Part shown: one piece after another, positions 17,095-64,000 of the stretch
Layout of the letters: each line of letters begins with the position of its first letter
How positions within the stretch are numbered: position 1 is the stretch's first letter
Assembly (NCBI GenBank): GCA_046352935.1
Contig: JAXMGR010000021.1
Coordinates: forward strand, 6,089-70,088
Direction of reading: 5' to 3'
DNA from: Steroidobacteraceae bacterium
GTDB lineage: Bacteria; Pseudomonadota; Gammaproteobacteria; Steroidobacterales; Steroidobacteraceae
Length of the DNA: 64,000 nt
Position numbers and translations under genes: made by a program
The notes under the pieces: model-generated
Database searches by the model: none
What the model saw: the letters and a program-made list of their open reading frames with translations, nothing else
Told to the model about the DNA's origin: nothing

Positions 17095-17170
17095 GGGACA
17101 TTCTCCCTGAGATGACCCTGAGATGCCCCTGAGATGACGGACGCAGGACGCGCGGGCTGCGGACGGAGGG
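17095..17170. repeat. truncated type-A intergenic repeat arm, including an 11-bp x3 tandem (CCTGAGATGMC, 17106-17138)
   Basis: CCTGAGATGACGGACGCAGGACGCGCGGGCTGCGGACGGAGGG (17128-17170) is the near-perfect reverse complement of 17417-17462. Confidence 0.8.
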
Positions 17171-17172
17171 GT

Positions 17173-17314
17173 CATTCCCGATTTCCGGCAGCGTCGCGTC
17201 CAGGCGCGGGCTGCAACGGAGAGATCGCCTCGGCTCGCGGGAAGAATTACGCGAGCCTCGCCGACTCTCCTGCGCGCCCGCGCCGGGCGATGCTGGCGAT
17301 GGAAATCGGGAATG
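17173..17314. repeat. type-B MITE/REP-like palindromic repeat (copy 1, inverted relative to the 42680 copy)
   Basis: Terminal inverted repeats are CATTCCCGATTTCC and GGAAATCGGGAATG. Its reverse complement aligns end to end, by eye at about 75-80% identity, with 42680-42819. Confidence 0.85.
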
Positions 17315-17319
17315 GGGGG

Positions 17320-17485
17320 GAGCGGGACATTCTTGCTGACTGCCGCGGCGTATCAGGCGCGCGGGCGCGCAGGAGGGCCCCGAGGCGAGCGTAAAGATCT
17401 GGCGCGAGACGAGGGGCCCTCCGTCCGCAGCCCGCGCGTCCTGCGACCGTCGTCATCTCAGGAAATGAAGCATGTCCCCATTCCT
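17320..17485. repeat. type-A MITE/REP-like repeat (full copy)
   Basis: The core GGCGCGCGGGCGCGCAGGAGGGCCCCGAGGCGAGCGTAAAGATCTGGCGCGAGACGAGGGGCCCTCCGTCCGCAGCCCGCGCGTCC recurs as a reverse complement at 30552-30632. The end motif GGAAATGAAGCATGTCCCCATTCC matches GGAAATGAAGCAATGTCCCCATTTCC at about 30655-30680. Confidence 0.85.
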
Positions 17486-30519: not shown

Positions 30520-30680
30520 GGGGCATTTTTCCCCCGCGACGACGGCAGCTGGACGCGCGGGCTGCGGACGGAGGGCCCCTCGTCTCGCGCCAGATCTTTA
30601 CGCTCGCCTCGGGGCCCTCCTGCGCGCCCGCTCGTCCGATGCGCTGCGGCAGGGAAATGAAGCAATGTCCCCATTTCCCC
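30520..30680. repeat. type-A MITE/REP-like repeat (inverted relative to the 17320-17485 copy)
   Basis: GGACGCGCGGGCTGCGGACGGAGGGCCCCTCGTCTCGCGCCAGATCTTTACGCTCGCCTCGGGGCCCTCCTGCGCGCCCGC is the reverse complement of the 17.36-17.44 kb core. The ends GGGGAACGGGGGCAT and ATGTCCCCATTTCCCC form terminal inverted repeats. Track ORFs 30489..30674 and 17312..18037 share the artefactual peptide GPRGERKDLARDEGPSVRSPRV. Confidence 0.85.
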
Positions 30681-36015: not shown

Positions 36016-37074
<1,059 letters not shown>

Positions 37075-37122
37075 ACCGGCCCGATCCGACGACCGCCACG
37101 CAACTCACACGGGGAGAGCCCC

Positions 37123-38307
37123 ATGGCCACCGTTCTCCGCATGGTCGATCTCGACCTGAAGGGTAAGCGCGTGCTGATCCGCGAGGATCTGAACGTGCCC
37201 GTGCACGACGGTGTCGTGACCAGCGACGCGCGCATCCGCGCCTCGCTGCCGACCATCAAGCTCGCGCTGGAGAAGGGTGCGCGCCTCCTGATCGCCTCGC
37301 ACCTCGGTCGCCCCGAGGAAGGCAAGGTCGATCCGGCCTTGTCGCTGGAGCCGGTGGCCGCGCGGCTGTCCGAGCTGCTGGGCCGCAAGGTGCCGCTGAA
37401 GCGCGACTGGTTCGACGGCGCCGAGGTGGTGCCCGGCGAGGCGGTGCTGCTCGAGAACGTGCGCTTCCTGAAGGGCGAGAAGAAGGACAACGAGGACCTC
37501 GCGAAGCGCATGGCGGCGCTCTGCGACGTCTACGTGATGGACGCCTTCGGCACGGCGCACCGCGCCGAAGCGAGCACCCACGGCGTGGCACGCTTCGCGC
37601 CCGTGGCCTCGGCGGGGCCGCTGCTCGTCAATGAACTCGTCGCGCTGGAGACCGCGCTGGAGAAGCCGGCGCGCCCGCTGCTCGCGATCGTCGCGGGCTC
37701 GAAGGTCTCGACCAAGCTCACCGTGCTGGAGACGCTGCTCGGCAAGGTCGATCAGCTCATCGTGGGCGGCGGCATCGCGAACACCTTCATCGCGGCCGTG
37801 GGGCTGCCGGTCGGCAGGTCGCTGTACGAGGCCGACATGGTCGACATCGCGAAGAGGCTGATCGAGCAGTCGAAGGCACGTGGCGTCGAGATCCCGATCC
37901 CGACCGACGTCGTGGTCGCCAAGGAGTTCTCGGCCACGGCCGAGGCCGACGTGAAGCCGGTCGCCGAAGTGGCTGCCGACGACATGATCCTGGACATCGG
38001 GCCGGACACCGCCGAGCGGTTCGCGAAGGTCGTGGCCGCCGCCGGCACGGTCGTCTGGAACGGCCCGGTCGGCGTGTTCGAGTTCGACCAGTTCGGCGAG
38101 GGCACGAAGACGCTGGCGAACGCCATCGCGCGCTCGAAGGCGTTCTCGCTCGCGGGCGGCGGCGACACGCTGGCCGCGATCGAGAAGTACGGCGTCGAGG
38201 AAGGGATTTCCTACATCTCGACGGGTGGCGGTGCCTTCCTCGAGTTCGTCGAGGGCAAGTTGCTGCCGGCCGTGGCCGCGCTGGAGGCGCGCGCCGGGAG
38301 CGCCTGA
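37123..38307 (+). CDS. pgk: phosphoglycerate kinase
   Basis: [12 protein letters not shown], with [23 protein letters not shown] and [10 protein letters not shown]. Confidence 0.97.
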
Positions 38308-38439
38308 CCGGACTCTGCGGCGCTCCGTCACCGTGACGTCCGGCTGCGACCGGTGACGGCAGGCGGCCGGCCGCGGCCGACGACACCGGGCCCTTCCCAG
38401 CAGGCATAATCCGGCGGTTACCGTTGCCGGAGCGAGCGC

Positions 38440-39870
38440 ATGCTGAGACGCACCAAGATAGTCGCGACCCTGGGTCCTGCAACGGACGATCCCGCCGTGC
38501 TGACCGACATGATCCGGGCCGGCGTCGACGTGGTGCGCGTCAATTTCTCCCACGGGCGGTTCGAGGATCACGCGCAGCGCATCGGACGCGTGCGCGAGGC
38601 CGCCGAACGCGCGGGCCGGTACGTGGGGATCCTCGGCGACCTGCGCGGTCCGAAGATCCGCATCGAGCGCTTCGCGACCGGCCGTGTCGAGCTGAAGGAG
38701 GGCGACCACTTCGCGCTCGACCCGGCGCTGGATCCGGAGGCCGGCACCGCGGCGGGTGTCGGCGTGGCCTATCCGGACCTGCCGCGCGACGTGAAGGCCG
38801 GCGACACGCTGCTCCTCAACGACGGACTCATCGCGCTGCGCGTCACGGGTGTCGCCGGCACGCGCATCGACACGGTCGTGACCGTCGGCGGCGAACTGTC
38901 GAACCAGAAGGGACTCAACAAGAAAGGCGGCGGCCTGTCGGCCGCTGCGCTGACCGACAAGGATCGCTCCGACATCCGCATGGCGGCCGAACTCGGCGTC
39001 GATTACCTCGCGGTCTCGTTCGTGCGGTCGGCGGCTGATGTCGAGGAGGCTCGCGGTCTGCTGAAGGCGGCCGGCGGGCACGCGCGCATCATGGCCAAGA
39101 TCGAGCGCGGCGAGGCCATCCAGAACCTCGAGGAGATCGTGCGCGCATCGGACGCGGTCATGGTGGCGCGTGGCGACCTCGGCGTCGAGGTCGGCTATGC
39201 GCAGCTCACCGGTCTGCAGAAGCGCATCATCCAGCTCGCGCGGCGGCACAACCGCATCGCGGTGACGGCGACGCAGATGATGGAGTCCATGATCACGAAC
39301 CCCGTGCCGACGCGGGCGGAGGTCTCCGACGTCGCCAATGCCGTGATGGACGACACCGATGCGGTCATGCTCTCGGCCGAGACCGCGGTCGGCAGGTATC
39401 CGGTCAAGGTCGTGCAGGAGATGGCGCAGGTCATCGAGGGCGCCGAGAAGTGGCACCATTCGCACGCGCGCGAGCGGCATCGCATCGACGGCTATTTCAA
39501 GGGCACCGACGAGGCCATCGCGATGGCGGTGATGTACACCGCGAACCACCTCAACGTGAAGGCCATCGTCGCGCTGACCGAGTCCGGCTCGACGACGCTG
39601 TGGATGTCGCGCATCCGCTCGGACATCCCCATCTACGCCTTCACGCGCCAGGAGGCGACGCGCCGGCGCGTGACGCTGTACCGCGGCGTCCAGCCGATCG
39701 CCTTCGACGTGGTGCAGACCGATCCGGAGATCCTGTACCCGACCATCTTCCATCTGGTCATCGAACTCGGGCTCGCCCGCGCCGGCGACCTGATCATCGT
39801 CACCAAGGGCGAGCTGACCGGTGTCGCCGGCGGCACGAATTCCATGAAGATCCTCGAGGTCCGCAACTGA
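38440..39870 (+). CDS. pyk: pyruvate kinase
   Basis: MLRRTKIVATLGPATDD, with VRVNFSHG, MVARGDLGVE and TQMMESM. Confidence 0.95.
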   Translation: MLRRTKIVATLGPATDDPAVLTDMIRAGVDVVRVNFSHGRFEDHAQRIGRVREAAERAGRYVGILGDLRGPKIRIERFATGRVELKEGDHFALDPALDPEAGTAAGVGVAYPDLPRDVKAGDTLLLNDGLIALRVTGVAGTRIDTVVTVGGELSNQKGLNKKGGGLSAAALTDKDRSDIRMAAELGVDYLAVSFVRSAADVEEARGLLKAAGGHARIMAKIERGEAIQNLEEIVRASDAVMVARGDLGVEVGYAQLTGLQKRIIQLARRHNRIAVTATQMMESMITNPVPTRAEVSDVANAVMDDTDAVMLSAETAVGRYPVKVVQEMAQVIEGAEKWHHSHARERHRIDGYFKGTDEAIAMAVMYTANHLNVKAIVALTESGSTTLWMSRIRSDIPIYAFTRQEATRRRVTLYRGVQPIAFDVVQTDPEILYPTIFHLVIELGLARAGDLIIVTKGELTGVAGGTNSMKILEVRN

Positions 39871-42679: not shown

Positions 42680-42819
42680 CATTCACGATTTCCGCCACGA
42701 CCTCACCCGGCGCGGGCGCGCAGCAGGGTCGGCGAGTCGAGCGTCAATCTTCCCGCGAGACGAGCCGAGCCCTGCGTTGCAGCCCGCGCTGCGGCCTGCA
42801 TCACCGGAAATCGTGAATG
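42680..42819. repeat. type-B MITE/REP-like palindromic repeat (copy 2)
   Basis: TIRs are CATTCACGATTTCC and GGAAATCGTGAATG. The internal core is homologous to both the 17173-17314 copy and the type-A cores. Confidence 0.85.
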
Positions 42820-55998: not shown

Positions 55999-56095
55999 GC
56001 CGCCTCCATAAGAGCGACGAAACAAGCCGGCGTTCCGTCCCCCGGGGCGGATGCGTCAGGGGATGTTGTGGGCTGATGTGTCCAGGGGTGACCGG

Positions 56096-56701
56096 ATGAG
56101 CGAACAGGTGGATCAGGGCAGGCGTTCGCTGCTGACTGCGGCGACGGCTGTGACCGGCGCGATCGGTGTGGCGTTTGCCGCGGCACCGTTCCTGGCCTCG
56201 TGGAAGCCGAGCGCGCGGGCCCGCGCACTCGGTGCGCCCGTGTCGGTCGATGTGAGCAAGCTCGAAGTGGGTGCGATGCTCAAGGTCGAATGGCGCGGCC
56301 AGCCGATCTACGTCGTGCGCCGCACGGCGGCGATGGTCGCGGGGCTCGAGAAGGCCAATGACCTGCTCGCCGATCCGGAATCGGAGATCTCCGAGCAGCC
56401 GGAGTATGCGCGCAACGCCGTGCGGGCCAGCAAGCCCGAGTTCCTGGTGGTGAAGGCGGTGTGCACGCATCTCGGTTGTGCCCCGCAGGCCGCGTTCGAG
56501 GTGGGTACTGCGGACCTGTCGGCACGCGTCGGGCGGGAGTGGCCGGGCGGCTTCTTCTGCGCCTGTCACGGCTCGATGTTCGATCTGGCGGGGCGCGTGC
56601 TGAAGAACGTGCCCGCGCCGAAGAATCTCATCGTGCCGCCCTATTCCTGGACGGATGACAGTCACATCCTCGTGGGCGAGGATCCGGCGGGAGTCGCGTG
56701 A
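56096..56701 (+). CDS. petA: ubiquinol-cytochrome c reductase, Rieske iron-sulfur subunit
   Basis: Tat-like RRSLL, then the Rieske boxes CTHLGC and CACHGS. Confidence 0.93.
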   Translation: MSEQVDQGRRSLLTAATAVTGAIGVAFAAAPFLASWKPSARARALGAPVSVDVSKLEVGAMLKVEWRGQPIYVVRRTAAMVAGLEKANDLLADPESEISEQPEYARNAVRASKPEFLVVKAVCTHLGCAPQAAFEVGTADLSARVGREWPGGFFCACHGSMFDLAGRVLKNVPAPKNLIVPPYSWTDDSHILVGEDPAGVA

Positions 56702-57978
56702 TGGCCAACGAAACGCCCAAAGCCAGTGCCGCCGGCGGCGGTTGCCTGCAGTCGTTCGGTCAGTGGATCGACGACCGTTTCCCGATGTCGAAGATGTGGC
56801 GTGAGCACCTGAGCGAGTACTACGCGCCCAAAAACTTCAACACCTGGTACTACTTCGGCTCGCTGGCGCTGCTCGTGCTGGTGCTGCAGATCGTCACGGG
56901 CATCTTCCTGACGATGAACTACAAGCCGAGCGCCGCCGAGGCCTTCGGCTCCGTCGAATACATCATGCGCGACGTCGAGTGGGGTTGGCTGATCCGCTAC
57001 CTGCACTCGACCGGCGCCTCGGCGTTCTTCGTCGCCGTCTATCTGCACATGTTCCGCGCGCTGCTGTACGGCTCGTACCGCAAGCCGCGCGAACTGCTGT
57101 GGATCTTCGGCATGTTCATCTACCTGGCCCTGATGGCCGAAGGTTTCTTCGGCTACCTGCTGCCCTGGGGCAACATGTCCTACTGGGGCGCGCAGGTGAT
57201 CGTGTCGCTGTTCGGTACGTTCCCGGTGATCGGTGGCGCGCTGGTGGAGTGGATACGCGGCGACTACTTCATCTCCGACATCACGCTGAACCGCTTCTTC
57301 GCGCTGCACGTCATCGCGCTGCCGCTGGTGCTCGTGTTCCTCGTCGTCGCGCACATCCTCGCGCTGCACGAGGTCGGCTCGAACAACCCCGACGGCATCG
57401 AGATCAAGAAGAACAAGGGTCCGGACGGCAAGCCGCTGGACGGCATCCCCTTCCACCCGTACTACACGGTGAAGGACATCATGGGGGTGGCGTTCTTCCT
57501 GATCGTGTTCTGCGCCATCGTGTTCTTCGCGCCGGCCTTCGGCGGTCTGTTCCTGGAGGCGCCGAATTTCGAGCCGGCGAATCCGATGCAGACGCCGCTG
57601 CACATCGCGCCGGTGTGGTACTACACGCCGTTCTACGCGATGCTGCGTGCGGTTCCGGCCTTCGCCGGCACGCAGGTCTGGGGCGTGATCGTCATGTTCG
57701 CGGCGATCGCCGTGCTGTTCTTCCTGCCGTGGCTGGACCGCTCGCCGGTCAAGTCGATCCGCTATCGCGGGCCGCTCTACAAGATCGCGCTGACGCTGTT
57801 CGCGGTCTCGTTCGTCGTGCTGGCCTACTGCGGCCTGCAGCCGGTCTCGGCGTTGCTGTCGTGGGTCTCGCGGGCGGGTACCCTCGTGTACTTCCTGTTC
57901 TTCGCGCTGATGCCGTGGTACTCGCGCGTCGACAAGACCAGGCCGGAGCCGCAGAGGGTCACCTACCATGCGCACTAA
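56698..57978 (+). CDS. petB: cytochrome b
   Basis: WRYLHSTGASAFF-type motif (IRYLHSTGASAFFVAVYLHMFR) and the PEWY equivalent (APVWYYTPFYAMLR). ATGA overlap with petA. Confidence 0.96.
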   Translation: MMANETPKASAAGGGCLQSFGQWIDDRFPMSKMWREHLSEYYAPKNFNTWYYFGSLALLVLVLQIVTGIFLTMNYKPSAAEAFGSVEYIMRDVEWGWLIRYLHSTGASAFFVAVYLHMFRALLYGSYRKPRELLWIFGMFIYLALMAEGFFGYLLPWGNMSYWGAQVIVSLFGTFPVIGGALVEWIRGDYFISDITLNRFFALHVIALPLVLVFLVVAHILALHEVGSNNPDGIEIKKNKGPDGKPLDGIPFHPYYTVKDIMGVAFFLIVFCAIVFFAPAFGGLFLEAPNFEPANPMQTPLHIAPVWYYTPFYAMLRAVPAFAGTQVWGVIVMFAAIAVLFFLPWLDRSPVKSIRYRGPLYKIALTLFAVSFVVLAYCGLQPVSALLSWVSRAGTLVYFLFFALMPWYSRVDKTRPEPQRVTYHAH

Positions 57979-58702
57979 GTCGTTTCTCGCGGCATTGCTG
58001 CTGCTCCCGGTCGCGGCTCTCGCGTCCTCGGAAGGCGCGTACGAGCACGCCGGCACCGACATCCACAACCAGGCGTCGCTGCAGCGTGGCGCGCGGAATT
58101 TCGTGAACTACTGCCTCGGCTGCCATTCTGCACAGTACGTGCGCTGGAACCGTGTCGGCGCCGATCTCGGGCTCAACGAGAAGGACCTGGTCGCGAACCT
58201 CGTTCCGGAGGGTGCGTCGCCGCTGTCCATGGTGATCTCGCCGATGCCGAAGGCGCAGGCGGCCGAGTGGTTCGGCAACGCGCCGCCCGACCTGTCGCTG
58301 ATCGCGCGCAGCCGTGGCACGGATCGCGTGTACACGTTCCTCAAGAGCTTCTACGCGGATCCGGCGCGGCCGCACGGCGTGAACAACACCGTGCTGCCGG
58401 GCACCGTCATGCCGCACGTGCTCGCAGGCCTGCAGGGCGTGCAGCAGCCGAAGTACGAGGACGTCACGAAGGACGGTCACACCGCGAAGCACCTGGTCGG
58501 TTTCGAGCCCGGCACGCCCGGGGAACTCACGGCCGAGCAGTACGACGAGTTCGTGCGCGACACCGTGAACTTCCTCGACTACATCGGCGAGCCCTCGAAG
58601 GCCACGCGCGAGAACCTCGGCGTGTGGGTCCTCCTGTTCCTGCTGCTGTTCTTCGGGCTGTCCTACCTGCTCAAGAAGGAATACTGGAAGGACGTCCACT
58701 GA
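57968..58702 (+). CDS. petC: cytochrome c1
   Basis: Signal peptide, haem motif CLGCHS, and a C-terminal TM anchor (VWVLLFLLLFFGLSYLL). Confidence 0.92.
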   Translation: MRTKSFLAALLLLPVAALASSEGAYEHAGTDIHNQASLQRGARNFVNYCLGCHSAQYVRWNRVGADLGLNEKDLVANLVPEGASPLSMVISPMPKAQAAEWFGNAPPDLSLIARSRGTDRVYTFLKSFYADPARPHGVNNTVLPGTVMPHVLAGLQGVQQPKYEDVTKDGHTAKHLVGFEPGTPGELTAEQYDEFVRDTVNFLDYIGEPSKATRENLGVWVLLFLLLFFGLSYLLKKEYWKDVH

Positions 58703-58778
58703 GTCCTTCGCGGTCATTCGTCATGGCGGGAGCGGCAGGAATGTGCTGCGGGTTCCGGGGCGGGGAGCGCGTCGCGTC

Positions 58779-59195
58779 GTGACCGGGGATTCCCGTCCCA
58801 CTTCGCGGCGTCCCTATCTCGTGCGCGCCATGCACGAGTGGATGACGGACAACGGCCAGACGCCGCACATCGTCGTCGATGCGACGCTCGCAGGCGTCGA
58901 GGTCCCGGCCGGCTCCGTCAAGGACGGCCGTATCGTGCTGAACGTGAGCTGGCAGGCCACGCAGGGCCTCCGGCTCGGCAATGACCTGATCGAGTTCTCC
59001 GCGCGCTTCGGCGGTGTGCCGCACGCGGTGCGCCTGCCCGTCGCCGCGGTGCTCGGCATCTACGCGCGCGAGACCGGGCAGGGGCTCGTGTTCCAGGACG
59101 AATCGGATACCGAGCCGAGCCCGCCCGCGGGCCCGACGCCGACGTCGACCGCGACCGACGAAGGGCGCAGGCCGAAGCTGAGAGTGGTCAAGTAG
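58779..59195 (+). CDS. sspB: ClpXP adaptor / stringent starvation protein B
   Basis: RRPYLVRAMHEWMTDNGQTPHIVVDA...VLNVS...F...RF, then an acidic/Pro-rich linker and a C-terminal ClpX-binding tail (RPKLRVVK). The start is uncertain: GTG 58779, or upstream at 58743. Confidence 0.8.
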   Translation: MTGDSRPTSRRPYLVRAMHEWMTDNGQTPHIVVDATLAGVEVPAGSVKDGRIVLNVSWQATQGLRLGNDLIEFSARFGGVPHAVRLPVAAVLGIYARETGQGLVFQDESDTEPSPPAGPTPTSTATDEGRRPKLRVVK

Positions 59196-59241
59196 CGCAT
59201 CCGGGGCCGCATCCGCAGACCCGGTCGAAATGGAGGGGGAC

Positions 59242-59622
59242 ATGTCGATTTTCACGCACGTCGTCGTCGGGACCAACGATCTGGATCGCGCGCGCCGGTT
59301 CTACGACGCAGCGCTGGGTGCACTCGGACTGAAGCGCGAGGGCGACTACGACAAGGCCTCGGTGTGGGGCACGCCCACGTCGCATTTCATCGTCACGCGG
59401 CCGTTCAACGGCCTGCCGGCCTCGTGGGCCAACGGCGGCACCATCGGTCTGGTGGCGCCGAACCGCGCGGCCGTCGACGAGTTCCACAGGCAGGCGCTCG
59501 CCAACGGCGGTTATGACGAAGGCGCGCCCGGCCCGCGCACCTACATCCCGAATCTCTACGCGGCCTACGTGCGCGACCCGGACGGCAACAAGATCGTCGC
59601 GTCCTGCATCAAGCCGGAGTGA
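59242..59622 (+). CDS. VOC (glyoxalase/bleomycin-resistance/dioxygenase) family protein
   Basis: MSIFTHVVVGTNDLDRARRFYDAALGALGL...AYVRDPDGNKI is the typical VOC beta-alpha-beta-beta-beta module. Confidence 0.8.
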   Translation: MSIFTHVVVGTNDLDRARRFYDAALGALGLKREGDYDKASVWGTPTSHFIVTRPFNGLPASWANGGTIGLVAPNRAAVDEFHRQALANGGYDEGAPGPRTYIPNLYAAYVRDPDGNKIVASCIKPE

Positions 59623-59628
59623 CGGGCG

Positions 59629-62244
59629 TCAGCCGACACGGCTCACGCGCAGCTTCGGGCTGTTCTCCATCGCACCGTCCATGACGTCGAGATTCTTCAT
59701 CTCGTAGTCGAGCAGCGCGCCGAAGTGCACGCCCGTGTCGCCGCCACGGCGCGGCGGCAGGCTCTTCGCCCAGTTGCCGCCGGCGTGGTCCATGCCCACG
59801 CATTCCGGGTGGATGCATTCGCTCAGCGCCGCGATGCCCTCGACGGAGCCACCGCCCGTGCTCTCGACGCGTATGCGATCGCCGTCGCCGATGCCCTTCG
59901 AGCGCGCGTAGCCCCGGTTCAGGATGATCCGGCCGGCCGTCGGGTGATTGCGGCTGAGCTCGCCGAGCCACGCGTTGAAGTTCGAGAACGTGCCGGTCTT
60001 GAACGGCTGCTTGAAGCTGACGCCGTAGAGATCGAAGCCCGCGGTGCGGTCGCTGTGATTGGGACCGGGATACCAGGCCGGCAGCGGGTGGTAGCGTGAG
60101 AGGTCCCAGCTGATGCCCATCGAGCGCACCACTTCCGCGAGCTGGCGCCCCGCCTCGATGAAGTACTCGTAGTAGATCGGAATGCGCGCGGTGTAGAACA
60201 TGCGCGGATAGCGTTCCTGCACTGATTTCTTCCAGTGCAGGCGTCCTTCCTTCGCGACGTCCTCGAGGGACTTCGTGCCGGCCGTCATCGAACGGATCCA
60301 GCGGTCGGTCAGCTCGCGGTGTGTGTACTTCCGGTCCGGCTCGAGCCGGCACCGGTCGTCGAGCTGCATGCGGTTCGACATCTCGCGGTTGAGATCGGGC
60401 AGGAAGCCCGCCTCGCGGGCGAGGTCGATCCAGATGTCGACGTGGTGGCGATTGCCGAGATCGACGACGGGCTGGCGCAGGTTGATGCAGTACTCGGCCG
60501 TGACCGTCGAGCCCATGGTGTCGAAGATGTTGTTGGCGCCCATGTCCAGCCGCTCGAGCTGGGTCTGCGTCGGGAACACGATGTCGGCGAATTCCGCCGT
60601 CTCGTCCACGCAGGGCACGATCGAGATCTGGAAGCCGAACTTCCTCAGGTACTCGGCCTGGGTCTTCGGGTTGCCCTCGTTCAGCAGGTCGTTGCCGGAG
60701 AGCACCTGCACGAACACCATGGGGTTGTGCGGGATCCGGTTGTTGAAGCGGTCCGGCTTGATGACATTGAGCTTGGCGACGACGGGGCTCATGTACATGC
60801 CGACGGGTGCCAGCGAATCGGCCGAGTGGCTGATGGGTGGCGTGACCGGCTTGAGCGGGTAGTTCGACTGGAAGGCGCCGCCGTAGGTGGCGAACTCGCC
60901 CGGTACGAGGATGCCCTCGAAGTCGCGGAGCCCCGAGTTGCGCCCCATCCAGGTGCTGGTCCCCGAGAACTCCGGGTGATGCGCGTAGACGGTGTCGGAC
61001 AGCAGTCCGCCGGGCACGTCGATCGCGCCGACGATCGTGTTCAGCATCGCGATCGCAAGGCCCTGCTCGAAGCCCTGCGCGTGCTGGCTGATGCCCTTGT
61101 ACCAGTGCGCGCAGGCGGGCCTGAGCGGCAGCGTGTGGCCGTCGATGTCGATGGTCGCGCCGATCGAGGCGGCCGTGCCGAACTCGCGAGCGAGCCGGCG
61201 GATGGTCCCGGCCGGGATGGTCGTGATCTCCTGGGCGCGCTCGGGCGAGTAGTCGGCGAGATGCTGCTTCAGTTTCGCGAACGCGGGCTGACAGGGCTCG
61301 CCGTTCACCTCGAAGCGGCCGTCCATGGCGGCCGTGCGCAGCGCGGCATCGTCATAGGTCTTCGCGCAGTGGTCGTCTGCGTCCCACAGCAGCGGCTTGT
61401 TCGTGGCGGGATCGCGCACGTAGCGGCCGTCACTGTCGCGCACGAGATAGGGGCCGTTGCTGAGCTTCCTCAGGAACTCCAGGTCGTAGAGCCCGAGCTC
61501 GTTGATCATCACGTTCATCATCGCGAGCACGAGTGCGCCGTCGGTGCCGGGCCGGATCGGCACCCACTCGTCGGCGATGGCTGCGGCGTTCGAACAGCGC
61601 GGATCGACCACCACGAGCTTCTGGCCGCGCTTGCGGGCGGCCGACATCTCGACCGTCGAGGTCAGTGCGGCCCAGTTGCCCATCGCGCCCTTGGTCGAGC
61701 CGAACAGCATCACGTAGTTGGTGTAGTGGAAGTCCGGCGCGGCGTGGAACGCACCCTGCACCTGCTGCAGCACCGGATGCACGTTGTTGCCGCAGAAGGC
61801 GAGGCCGCCCGTGCAGAAGTTCGGCGTGCCGAAGGACGCGAGCGCGGAGCCCAGGAACCAGGGGAAGGTCGTGAAATCGGCGCAGGAATAGGCAAGCCCG
61901 GTCGGATCGGTCTCGCGGCATTCCCTGAGTTTCGCACCGGCGATGCGGATGGCCTCTTCGTACTCGATCTCGACCCACTTCGGATCGACGCCGATGCCCT
62001 TCTCGGGATTCGTGCGCTTCAAGGGCTTCGCGAAGCGCTTCGGGCTGTACGCCATCATGATCTGCGCATGCGCCTTGGCGCAGAGCCGGCCCTGGCTGAA
62101 CGGGCACTCGGGATCGCCGCGCAGTTCGACGACCACGCCATCGACGCGGCGCGCGTACATGGCGCAGGTGCCGGCGGGGCAGCCGTAGCAGACCGTCTTC
62201 AGCAGCACGTCCTCGTGGCGCTGGTTCGCGGCGGGTGTCTTCAT
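59629..62244 (-). CDS. cytoplasmic molybdopterin (Mo/W-bisPGD, DMSO-reductase family) oxidoreductase, paralogue B
   Basis: 871 aa from MKTPAANQRHEDVLLKTVCYGCPAGTCAMY...GRLCAKA. This is an N-terminal 4-Cys [4Fe-4S] motif, with no twin-arginine signal. Pterin-binding blocks are VMLFGSTKG and VVVDPRCSNAAAIADEWVPIRPGTDGAL. The C-terminal barrel has GIGDGDRIRVES. The ATG overlaps the stop of paralogue A (ATGA at 62241-62244). Confidence 0.85.
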   Translation of the reverse strand: MKTPAANQRHEDVLLKTVCYGCPAGTCAMYARRVDGVVVELRGDPECPFSQGRLCAKAHAQIMMAYSPKRFAKPLKRTNPEKGIGVDPKWVEIEYEEAIRIAGAKLRECRETDPTGLAYSCADFTTFPWFLGSALASFGTPNFCTGGLAFCGNNVHPVLQQVQGAFHAAPDFHYTNYVMLFGSTKGAMGNWAALTSTVEMSAARKRGQKLVVVDPRCSNAAAIADEWVPIRPGTDGALVLAMMNVMINELGLYDLEFLRKLSNGPYLVRDSDGRYVRDPATNKPLLWDADDHCAKTYDDAALRTAAMDGRFEVNGEPCQPAFAKLKQHLADYSPERAQEITTIPAGTIRRLAREFGTAASIGATIDIDGHTLPLRPACAHWYKGISQHAQGFEQGLAIAMLNTIVGAIDVPGGLLSDTVYAHHPEFSGTSTWMGRNSGLRDFEGILVPGEFATYGGAFQSNYPLKPVTPPISHSADSLAPVGMYMSPVVAKLNVIKPDRFNNRIPHNPMVFVQVLSGNDLLNEGNPKTQAEYLRKFGFQISIVPCVDETAEFADIVFPTQTQLERLDMGANNIFDTMGSTVTAEYCINLRQPVVDLGNRHHVDIWIDLAREAGFLPDLNREMSNRMQLDDRCRLEPDRKYTHRELTDRWIRSMTAGTKSLEDVAKEGRLHWKKSVQERYPRMFYTARIPIYYEYFIEAGRQLAEVVRSMGISWDLSRYHPLPAWYPGPNHSDRTAGFDLYGVSFKQPFKTGTFSNFNAWLGELSRNHPTAGRIILNRGYARSKGIGDGDRIRVESTGGGSVEGIAALSECIHPECVGMDHAGGNWAKSLPPRRGGDTGVHFGALLDYEMKNLDVMDGAMENSPKLRVSRVG

Positions 62245-64000
62245 AGGCGGGTCACCTTCAGGCGGGGACTGGCTTCCATCGCCCCGCTCATGACGTCGAG
62301 GTTCTTCATGTCGTAGTCGAACAATGCGCTGAAGTGTACGCCGGTCCGCCGCGCGCGCGGCGGCAGGCTCTTCGCCCAGTTGCCGCCCGCATGGTCCATG
62401 CCCACGCATTCGGGGTGGATGCACTCGCTCAGGACGGCGATGCCCTCGATCTCGCCGCCGCCGGTGCTCTCCACCCGGACCCGGTCGCCGTCCGCGATGC
62501 CCCTGGAACGGGCATAACGACGATTGAGAACGACCTTGCCCGACATCGGGTGGTGCTGGCCCAGCTCGCCCAGCCAGGCATTGAAGTTCGAGAACGTGCC
62601 CGTGCGGAAGGTCTGCTTGAAGCTGACCCCGTACAGGTCGAAGCCGGCGGGTTGCGCGCCATGCGCGGGGCCCGGGTACCAGCCCGGCAGCGGGCGATAG
62701 CGCGAAGTGTCCCAGGCGATGCCCATGGACCGCGTCAGCGCAGCGATCTTCTCGCCGACGTCGAGAACGTATTCGTAATAGACGGGTATCCGCGCCGTGT
62801 AGAACATGCGCGGATAGCGTTCCTGAACCGACTTCTTCCAGCTCAGGCGCCCGTCCTTCGCCACGTCCTCGAGCGTGCGCTGGCCCGCCGTCATGGAACG
62901 GATCCAGTGATCGGTCAGTTCCGCATGGCCGTAATGGCGTTCCGGCTGCAGCTGGAACGGCTCCTCCAGCTCCATGAAGTGGTTCACCATGCGGTTGAAC
63001 TCGGGAAGGATGCCCATGGCCTGCGCGATGTCGATCCAGATGTCGACGTGGTGGCGGTTGCCGAGGTCGACGACGGGCTGGCGCAGCGCGATGCAGTACT
63101 CATCCGTCGCCGTGGAGCCCATGGTGTCGGGGATGTTGTTGGCCCCCATGTCCAGCCGCTCGAGCTGCGTCTGGGTCGGGATCACGATGTCGGCGAACTC
63201 CGCGGTCTCGTCGAGGTTGGGCACGATCGAGAGCTGGAACCCGTACTTCTTCAGGTATTCGGCCTGCACCTTCGGGTTGGCCTGGTTCAGCATCGGATTG
63301 CCCACGACGTGCACGAAGGCGAGCGGGTTGTGCGGGATGCGGTTGTTGAAGCGTTCCGGATCGAGCACGTTCATCGTTGCGAGCGCAACGCTCATGAATC
63401 CGACACCGGCTCCGACCAGCTCGTTGCCGGCCATCGAGGCCGGCCCGCGGACCTCGCGAGGCGGATAGGGGGCGGGGAAATTGTCGGCGTAGGTCCCGAC
63501 CTTCCCGGGGACGAGGATGCCGTCCACCTCGCGCAGCCCGGAACCGCGACCCATCCAGGTGCTGTGCTCCGCGAACTCGGGATGGTGCGCATAGACCGTA
63601 TCGGCCAGCAGTCCGCCGGGTACGTCGATGGCGCCCACGAGCGTGTTCAGCATCGCGACGGCGAGACCCTGCTCGAAGGCCTGCGCGTGCAGGCTGATGC
63701 CGCGGTACCAGTGTGCGCAGGCGGGCCGCAGGGGCAGGGTGTGGCCGTCGATGTCGACGGTTGCACCGATCGACGCCGCGGTGCCGAACTCCCGTGCGAG
63801 CCGGCGGATGGTTTCGGCCGGAATGGTCGTGATCTCCGCCGTGCGCTCCGGCGTGTAGTCAGCGAGGTGCTGCTTCAGTTTCGCGAACGCGGGCTGGCAG
63901 GGCTCGCCGTTCACCTCGAAGCGACCCTCCATGACGGCCGTGCGCAGCGTGGCGTCGTCATGAGCCTTCACGCAGTGGTCGTCGGCGTCCCACAGCAGCG
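62241..64000 (-). CDS. cytoplasmic molybdopterin oxidoreductase, paralogue A (C-terminal ~585 aa; N-terminus outside the window)
   Basis: The frame stays open to the window edge: my translation of 63972-64000 gives ...LLWDADDHCVK, preceding the track's MKAHDD. It is colinear with paralogue B and, by eye, about 75% identical at the protein level. Confidence 0.85.
   Translation of the reverse strand, partial: LLWDADDHCVKAHDDATLRTAVMEGRFEVNGEPCQPAFAKLKQHLADYTPERTAEITTIPAETIRRLAREFGTAASIGATVDIDGHTLPLRPACAHWYRGISLHAQAFEQGLAVAMLNTLVGAIDVPGGLLADTVYAHHPEFAEHSTWMGRGSGLREVDGILVPGKVGTYADNFPAPYPPREVRGPASMAGNELVGAGVGFMSVALATMNVLDPERFNNRIPHNPLAFVHVVGNPMLNQANPKVQAEYLKKYGFQLSIVPNLDETAEFADIVIPTQTQLERLDMGANNIPDTMGSTATDEYCIALRQPVVDLGNRHHVDIWIDIAQAMGILPEFNRMVNHFMELEEPFQLQPERHYGHAELTDHWIRSMTAGQRTLEDVAKDGRLSWKKSVQERYPRMFYTARIPVYYEYVLDVGEKIAALTRSMGIAWDTSRYRPLPGWYPGPAHGAQPAGFDLYGVSFKQTFRTGTFSNFNAWLGELGQHHPMSGKVVLNRRYARSRGIADGDRVRVESTGGGEIEGIAVLSECIHPECVGMDHAGGNWAKSLPPRARRTGVHFSALFDYDMKNLDVMSGAMEASPRLKVTRL

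Follow-up and report, generated by a model that had tools for sequence, protein, structure and literature searches.

The 64,000-nucleotide stretch analysed here, hereafter the window, lies on contig C21 of a Steroidobacteraceae genome (G000:C21:6089-70088; the host assembly comprises 3.8 Mb in 51 contigs and is 96% complete). Its last part carries two colinear genes on the minus strand, referred to as A and B, which are predicted to encode paralogous catalytic (alpha) subunits of a molybdenum/tungsten-bis(pyranopterin guanine dinucleotide) (Mo/W-bisPGD) enzyme related to PadB (Table 1). An earlier note on this DNA had described the pair as having no visible electron-transfer partner. This proved true of the operon but not of the genome, in which a cognate pair of genes for an iron-sulfur (beta) and a membrane (gamma) subunit was found on another contig, C3, beside a third paralogue.

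Table 1. Features of the A/B locus and its putative partner locus. Coordinates are window positions unless a contig is named.
Feature	Position	Strand	Basis or remark
Paralogue B, PadB-type Mo/W-bisPGD catalytic (alpha) subunit, complete	59629..62244	(-)	871 aa; open reading frame and translation, Pfam, AlphaFold2 (AF2) model
Paralogue A	62241..64000	(-)	part in the window: C-terminal 585 codons
ATGA, in which the stop codon of A overlaps the B start codon	62241..62244	(-)	sequence read directly
AAGGTGA, Shine-Dalgarno-like, 7 nt upstream of the ATG of B, within the end of A	62252..62258	(-)	sequence read directly
FS0 [4Fe-4S] motif of B, C19-x2-C22-x4-C27...C55	62080..62190	(-)	four Cys conserved across the family; Pfam Molybdop_Fe4S4
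Cys151 codon in B (LAFCGNNVHP), candidate Mo/W ligand	61792..61794	(-)	aligned with the Cys in the SLCTAP segment of PsrA
Most divergent A/B segment, B residues ~448-497, variable loop	60754..60900	(-)	DNA identity 52-67%
Convergent Glyoxalase/VOC gene, 3' operon boundary, not part of the enzyme	59230..59622	(+)	Pfam PF00903; same order on sister-genome contig L012
Cognate beta-gamma pair beside third paralogue	C3:221920-223549		Pfam, gene context

Gene A extends past the window edge and is complete on the parent contig (C21:68329-70932, 867 aa), where its 5' end would correspond to window position 64844. The translated N-terminus of B reads MKTPAANQRHEDVLLKTVCYGCPAGTCAMY and that of A, taken from the parent contig, reads MSPCPEPAIQEDVELKTTCYGCPAGCCG. 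The stop/start overlap of the two genes, which had been reported at exactly this position, is predicted to couple their translation. Upstream of A, a 170-bp spacer separates it from a gene for a 290-aa HpcH/CitE-type acyl-CoA lyase. Past the lyase gene, non-coding DNA extends for about 540 bp, and the contig ends with a divergent SnoaL/NTF2-like gene. A scan of the coding strand of the spacer for sigma-70 promoters and terminators found neither. On the other side, as had been stated, there is only the convergent gene of the vicinal oxygen chelate (VOC) family, which ends 6 bp from the stop codon of B. The operon thus consists of the citE-like lyase gene, A and B and is bounded on both sides; no gene for a beta subunit, another iron-sulfur protein, a membrane anchor or a chaperone is found within it. 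The operon start and any partner genes had been expected past position 64000. The start of A and the citE-like gene do lie there, but iron-sulfur or haem partner genes do not, and the candidate partners belong to the C3 locus.

With regard to cofactor binding, A and B contain the Pfam domains Molybdopterin, Molybdop_Fe4S4 and Molydop_binding, which, together with a four-domain fold and a candidate cysteine ligand, place them in the Mo/W-bisPGD (DMSO reductase or MopB) superfamily. The second spacing of the FS0 motif, described earlier as one residue longer than usual in the 871-residue B, is real: alignment with PsrA requires a one-residue gap at this point, and the x4 spacing recurs in the family alignment, being common to the A/B clade, Chloroflexi-type relatives (P0048, P0053) and PadB, with x3 in other subfamilies. 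Cys151, already suggested as the metal ligand, corresponds to the cysteine of the SLCTAP segment of PsrA, which we take to be the molybdenum ligand of that enzyme. It is kept in all sequences of a 26-row family alignment, including PadB, and is at least 90% conserved in a 118-row alignment. Both A and B retain all FS0 cysteines and the candidate ligand, and each is predicted to bind Mo/W-bisPGD through the conserved cysteine and to carry an FS0 [4Fe-4S] cluster. Neither N-terminus shows a twin-arginine motif, with 18 residues ahead of the first cysteine, and the beta subunit encoded on C3, which begins MARWGMLIDLKVCVGC, shows no twin-arginine (Tat) or Sec signal. A and B are consequently predicted to be cytoplasmic, as had been proposed for B; the newly read N-terminus of A holds no Tat signal either.

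None of the NCBIfam models reached its cut-off (the best were PhsA, at 177 bits against 694, and ArrA, at 112 against 1600), so no equivalog name is justified. With neither an RR motif nor an equivalog-level score, A and B do not fit the periplasmic Psr/Phs/Arr reductases. In a profile search of the PDB, PsrA (1e-78) and ArrA (1e-71) ranked ahead of PcrA and acetylene hydratase. An AF2 model of B built from 118 homologues (predicted local distance difference test score, pLDDT, 92.6; predicted template modelling score, pTM, 0.93) has ArrA, PsrA, PcrA, ethylbenzene dehydrogenase (EBDH) and acetylene hydratase as its fold neighbours, with template modelling (TM) scores of 0.6-0.8 at 16-22% identity.

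The two paralogues are 73% identical at the protein level (635/866), close to the 75% first estimated by eye, and 77% identical at the DNA level, with a longest exact common run of 34 nt. Stretches of about 85% DNA identity, which had also been reported, do occur around residues 226-400 (85-91%), but the example that had been given, 59650-59830 against 62260-62440 at the C-terminal end, reaches about 79-82%. Third-codon positions are the most diverged (66% identity), and the ratio of nonsynonymous to synonymous substitution rates (dN/dS) is 0.30 for A and B and 0.30-0.48 among the paralogues. Differences between the two proteins cluster at residues ~100-125, 426-500 and 600-650; the most variable residues across the clade are ~466-495, 616-645 and 721-735. 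The most divergent segment, whose counterpart in A occupies window positions 63357-63503, has a clade-wide entropy of 1.2-1.7 bits against a mean of 0.95. Here, B retains the form found in P0005, its nearest relative; A has the more derived one. An unrelated cassette was considered for this segment and ruled out, as the segment aligns to the clade-wide pattern. The variable loop is probably related to specificity.

At positions otherwise invariant in the clade, A departs in 6.2% and B in 4.6% of cases, compared with 2.1-11.5% in members linked to beta-gamma genes. A and B give no sign of relaxed constraint, and both are under purifying selection. In a genome of the same genus (G042, a Steroidobacteraceae metagenome-assembled genome, MAG), the gene order of the window recurs on one contig: the 3' end of a B orthologue (89% identity) and, after it, the VOC, sspB and petC genes. 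Given that B is 89% identical to this orthologue but only 73% identical to A, the duplication predates the speciation that separated these two genomes. By these comparisons, A and B are real, diverged paralogues that stem from an old tandem duplication, and the distribution of their differences probably reflects differing specificities, one of the two roles that had been envisaged for the pair.

The host genome encodes about 10 full-length alpha subunits of the family. Five belong to the close clade (62-100% identity to A), namely A, B, one on C3 and two on C18 (C18a and C18b), and are mutually 62-74% identical. The five distant ones (31-38% identity) comprise two on C33, one on C17 and two on C16; of the C16 pair, one is divided between frames. 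The C3 alpha gene is directly followed by a gene for a 204-aa four-cluster ferredoxin (Fer4_11) and then by one for a 312-aa NrfD/DmsC-type membrane protein. This is the one cognate beta-gamma pair of the genome; the other four clade alphas have no adjacent pair. The distant copies C33b and C17 have their own beta-gamma genes. Compared with the C3 beta, the other beta genes of the genome (on C33, on C17 and at the start of C16) show 45-55% identity and fall into distant subfamilies. The close clade is thus represented by more alpha than beta-gamma genes (5 against 1), as in systems with a shared beta-gamma module. The single FdhD homologue of the genome is located at C12:60134-60880.

Outside this genome, all 13 distinct contexts of clade members that were examined include a 4Fe-4S beta gene, directly after the alpha gene or close by, and a gamma gene for an NrfD/DmsC anchor comes next wherever there is enough sequence, except in L034. 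Orthologues at 66-67% identity, from four Aromatoleum species, Azoarcus sp. Aa7 and Steroidobacteraceae MAGs, all lie in alpha-beta-gamma operons. Metagenomic relatives at 65-73% identity (P0005, P0006, P0007, P0009, P0030, P0033) have the beta gene directly after the alpha gene or nearby; in P0005, the nearest outside relative of A and B, it follows directly. Orphan alphas of the close clade were found only in the host genome, where they number four, and no tandem alpha-alpha pair was found in the 13 outside contexts. Across the clade, the beta subunit is more conserved (75-96% identity) than the alpha subunit (65-73%). Genes flanking the relatives encode acyl-CoA dehydrogenases, CoA ligases, CoA transferases, thiolases and enoyl-CoA hydratases.

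In phylogenetic trees, A and B are sisters, with a Shimodaira-Hasegawa-like approximate likelihood ratio (SH-aLRT) support of 96 in a quick tree and ultrafast bootstrap (UFBoot) and SH-aLRT supports of 79 and 92 in a careful one. They fall into an eight-member subclade (support 100/99) with P0005, P0008, P0009, P0026, P0033 and C18b of the same genome, and those members whose context is known (P0005, P0009, P0033) are of the alpha-beta-gamma type. The C3 alpha and C18a were placed in other subclades, so the five clade copies do not derive from one recent burst. The beta-gamma linkage is ancestral and was lost by A and B together with C18b. Phylogeny and structure prediction, both of which had been proposed as checks, yielded a sister pair in a PadB-related clade and a confident model, but no clear orthology to a characterised enzyme. 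Among 60 other genomes sampled from the same family (40 genera), the close clade occurs only in the genome of the same genus, and 2 further genomes have a match at the level of PadB only. The wider group gave more than 2,300 matches in a word-filtered search, from Betaproteobacteria, Gammaproteobacteria, Chloroflexi, Deltaproteobacteria, Binatia and Firmicutes. Literature searches for a characterised clade member, for PadB-like paralogues and for molybdoenzymes of this type in Steroidobacteraceae or Azoarcus Aa7 returned nothing specific. The A/B clade is large, unnamed, uncharacterised and distantly related to PadB.

PadBCD is described, in a passage of PMC9765128 that cites Rhee & Fuchs 1999, as the phenylacetyl-CoA:acceptor oxidoreductase of Thauera aromatica and Aromatoleum. 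PadB of the Aromatoleum diolicum pad cluster is 30% identical to B (E 2e-83, B residues 15-826, ~890 columns), and PadC shares 45% identity with the beta subunit encoded on C3 (E 2e-64). PadD and the C3 gamma both match DmsC/NrfD models, yet no BLASTP similarity was seen between them. Like A and B, PadB is an alpha subunit without a signal peptide, with the x4 FS0 spacing and the conserved ligand cysteine; in contrast, the third FS0 ligand position is occupied by aspartate in PadB (C-x2-C-x4-D) and by cysteine in the A/B clade. The alpha-beta-gamma gene order of PadBCD is found in the clade relatives and in the C3 paralogue, where beta and gamma directly follow alpha, but not at A and B. The pad clusters found in Aromatoleum diolicum and Aromatoleum toluolicum comprise genes for an FdhD-like protein, PadB (917-925 aa), PadC, PadD, PadE-I, a PaaK-type ligase and PaaX; no pad pathway gene (padEFGHI, padJ or the FdhD-like gene) occurs near A and B. 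We conclude from these comparisons that A and B are PadB-type alphas of a separate clade, homologues and not orthologues of PadB. To our knowledge, no other member of the very large group of inward-facing molybdenum enzymes to which PadBCD belongs has been studied, and PadBCD has no solved structure.

A precedent for unequal numbers of alpha and beta-gamma genes is provided by steroid C25 dehydrogenase (S25DH). Sterolibacterium denitrificans has eight S25DH alpha genes (72-82% identical) and fewer beta-gamma genes; the purified enzyme is alpha1-beta3-gamma3, and the isoenzymes S25DH1-4 share beta-gamma subunits while their alphas set the substrate specificity (PMC6016249). The likeness to the present genome lies in organisation, with many alphas and fewer beta-gamma genes, and is an analogy, not a homology. 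S25DH differs in belonging to the EBDH-like type II branch, in being Tat-exported and periplasmic, and in lacking an NrfD-type anchor, its gamma subunit being a haem b protein. The alpha subunit of EBDH is only remotely related in sequence to A and B (E 1.6e-12), and EBDH-like type II enzymes are Asp-ligated.

The nearest solved structures by both sequence profile and fold are PsrABC (2vpw) and ArrAB (6cz7). They share with the A/B type the cysteine ligand, FS0 and a four-cluster beta subunit, and Psr also an NrfD-type anchor; they differ in being Tat-exported and periplasm-facing, in reducing inorganic substrates, in the C-x2-C-x3-C spacing of FS0 and in sequence (20-22% identity). SoeABC, a sulfite:quinone oxidoreductase, is a three-subunit molybdenum enzyme with an NrfD-like anchor, a proposed cytoplasm-facing orientation and an inorganic substrate (PMC8076601). 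We saw no specific sequence affinity of SoeABC to A and B, and no Soe model was among the NCBIfam matches. The same review of NrfD-type complexes makes no mention of the PadBCD group (PMC8076601).

On balance, we consider it somewhat probable that A and B are diverged isoenzyme alphas of a cytoplasm-facing, membrane-associated, PadBCD-type Mo/W-bisPGD enzyme and that they dock in trans on a shared beta-gamma pair encoded on C3. Because the citE-like/A/B operon contains no beta or gamma gene, the orphan A and B are proposed to dock onto this single pair, which would then serve all five clade alphas of the genome. Electrons could pass from the metal to FS0, through the beta clusters of the four-cluster ferredoxin and the NrfD/DmsC-type gamma subunit, and on to quinone, as in the scheme suggested by the relatives. 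The enzymes would oxidise or hydroxylate an activated C-H bond with water as the oxygen source, and the substrate would most likely be a CoA thioester or a related catabolic intermediate. C-H oxidation on a CoA thioester is suggested because of the homology to PadB and the CoA-centred neighbours, that is, the CitE-like lyase in the operon and the CoA enzymes around the relatives. Translational coupling would lead to co-expression of A and B, and divergence in a few loops would give them different substrate ranges. Partner sharing seems the likeliest arrangement in view of the conservation of beta, the unrelaxed constraint on A and B and the S25DH precedent. At the genome level, the puzzle of the missing partner, as originally posed, is mostly resolved: the locus represents a derived gene arrangement without partners in an uncharacterised PadB-related clade.

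Several points weigh against this proposal. The complex of A and B with the C3 pair is something we infer, and since the C3 alpha is placed in a different subclade, borrowing would involve a heterologous beta. Of the five clade alphas in the genome, four stand without beta-gamma genes, and distant subfamilies (C33a and C16a of this genome, L025 of Aromatoleum) also have no adjacent pair, so an alpha-only mode exists somewhere in the wider family. A comparison of the promoter regions of the orphan operon with those of the C3 and C18 loci revealed no shared regulator motif above shuffled background. At 96% completeness, the assembly could also have missed a further beta-gamma pair.

The main rival, which we regard as possible but unlikely, is that A and B function on their own in soluble form, with no beta-gamma subunits; electrons would then pass from FS0 to ferredoxin or flavodoxin, or the enzymes would perform a non-redox hydration like acetylene hydratase. 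In assimilatory nitrate reductase and FdhH, FS0 electrons pass to a soluble carrier. The bounded operon without partner genes, the four orphan clade alphas, the distant subfamilies without adjacent beta-gamma genes (C33a and C16a beside UbiD-like genes; L025) and the lack of a promoter motif common with the C3 operon would all fit such an enzyme. Acetylene hydratase (2e7z) is, moreover, among the fold and sequence neighbours, being cytoplasmic and having FS0 and a cysteine ligand; it differs in being monomeric, non-redox, only 727 aa long and 18% identical, and it ranks below PsrA and ArrA, which are beta-bound. The likeness to partner-less enzymes suggested in the earlier note found no support: beta is present in 13/13 outside contexts, including that of P0005, and the closest characterised relative, PadBCD, is a three-subunit membrane enzyme. 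Membership of a stand-alone class of the acetylene hydratase kind is thus not indicated by the relatives. A cognate beta-gamma pair does exist in the genome, and positions invariant in the beta-gamma-linked members have not undergone excess change in A or B. A more specific version holds that A and B are PadB-type enzymes from a lineage of the cytoplasm-facing CISM family that has shed ferredoxin and anchor, that they use a soluble carrier or hydratase-type chemistry on an acyl-CoA or alicyclic intermediate, and that the tandem pair carries out two successive steps around the CitE-like lyase; this we would rate slightly lower again.

An obligate A-B heteromer, for example with both alphas in one complex, with or without beta-gamma, performing two successive oxidations, appears improbable. 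The ATGA overlap with its internal Shine-Dalgarno-like motif could ensure 1:1 synthesis, and both genes are under purifying selection. PsrABC is a dimer of trimers, and PadBCD carries out a four-electron oxidation. However, the absence of tandem alphas from the 13 outside contexts implies that this type of enzyme needs no second alpha, translational coupling is common for operon genes whose products do not interact, and the full catalytic site in both copies fits a structural partner poorly. It is more improbable still that one or both copies are redundant, without a function of their own, and heading for loss. Such a fate would be in keeping with the lack of partner genes at the operon, with a paralogue dN/dS above that typical of core enzymes and with the repeats resembling miniature inverted-repeat transposable elements (MITEs) that flank the citE-like gene. 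Yet both are full-length, intact reading frames with all cofactor ligands, their third-codon positions are the most diverged, their conservation equals that of linked members, and B, with its syntenic orthologue in the sister species, has been kept since before the split. Finally, a collapsed or chimeric assembly join is scarcely credible: although the genome holds five close paralogues and the sister-genome contig breaks inside the B orthologue, the 77% DNA identity and the 34-nt longest common run, the clean in-frame ATGA junction with its ribosome-binding motif, and the presence of the 3' part of B, with the same genes downstream, in a genome assembled independently all speak against it.

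Enzymes of this type insert water-derived oxygen into C-H bonds without O2, which makes them relevant to the anaerobic breakdown of recalcitrant organic compounds and to biocatalysis. The genome amounts to a compact natural experiment, with five catalytic subunits that are 62-74% identical, four of them partnerless, and one partner pair. If the shared module is real, many alphas could be screened for substrates in one beta-gamma expression chassis, as with S25DH; if it is not, an enzyme of this type in soluble form would be a novelty. Whichever reading holds, the finding is a lead to function and not a new principle.

Some further observations concern the paralogues and relatives. The C3 alpha-beta-gamma operon is preceded by genes for an APH-family phosphotransferase and a short-chain dehydrogenase/reductase (C3:217040-218981), and the Aromatoleum orthologue is preceded by two acyl-CoA dehydrogenase genes (L006:4781-7881). 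The pairing of kinase and acyl-CoA dehydrogenase recalls hydroxyacyl-CoA handling of the LvaA/LvaC or ACAD10/11 type and could hint at the fate of the product. In one metagenomic relative (L028:12646-15716), the alpha gene is followed by a gene for a KstD-like FAD protein and then by one for a 520-aa fusion of ferredoxin beta and NrfD/DmsC anchor. A steroid-specific role, which the family name Steroidobacteraceae and the KstD-like, ChsH2-like and SnoaL-type neighbours in relatives might suggest, was not adopted, as the same orthologue occurs in toluene- and cyclohexanediol-degrading Aromatoleum. AtcABC, a steroid enzyme, is a member of another molybdoenzyme family.

At the start of C16 (C16:1-1535), genes for a PadC-like beta (45% identity with its C3 counterpart) and a PadD-like anchor precede one for a thiamine pyrophosphate-dependent enzyme. 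The contig end presumably cuts off a matching alpha gene, and the genome may also hold a true PadBCD-like enzyme. A distant subfamily (38-39% identity to B) adjoins UbiD-like (de)carboxylase genes, without adjacent beta-gamma genes, at C16:34712-42021 and 57140-61572, C33:319-3000 and L025:6506-11700. One C16 copy (36702-39132), a possible pseudogene, falls into three tblastn pieces that lie in different frames. In Aromatoleum toluclasticum, the gene of this subfamily is preceded by a small reading frame that is MoaD/ThiS-like by eye.

Elsewhere in the window (56051-59195), petA, petB and petC, encoding cytochrome bc1, are directly followed by an sspB-like gene with no sspA between; in Gammaproteobacteria, sspA is usually found between petC and sspB. 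The spacer between the citE-like gene and A (C21:70933-71103, beyond the window) contains a GC-rich, partly palindromic element of ~80 bp, copies of which, at 83-94% identity, are found on C20, C11, C17 and C36. A dispersed MITE-like repeat family was also observed in the window (~17146-17440, 30555-30631 and 42709-42819), at C21:72085-72380 and at L012:900-1144. One form, ~300 bp long, is bounded by terminal inverted repeats of 24 nt; the element upstream of citE (C21:72085-72380) has a 93% copy at window ~17146-17440, and shorter relatives of ~80-110 bp are dispersed over many contigs. In the sister genome, an inserted MITE-like copy separates the VOC gene from the B orthologue.

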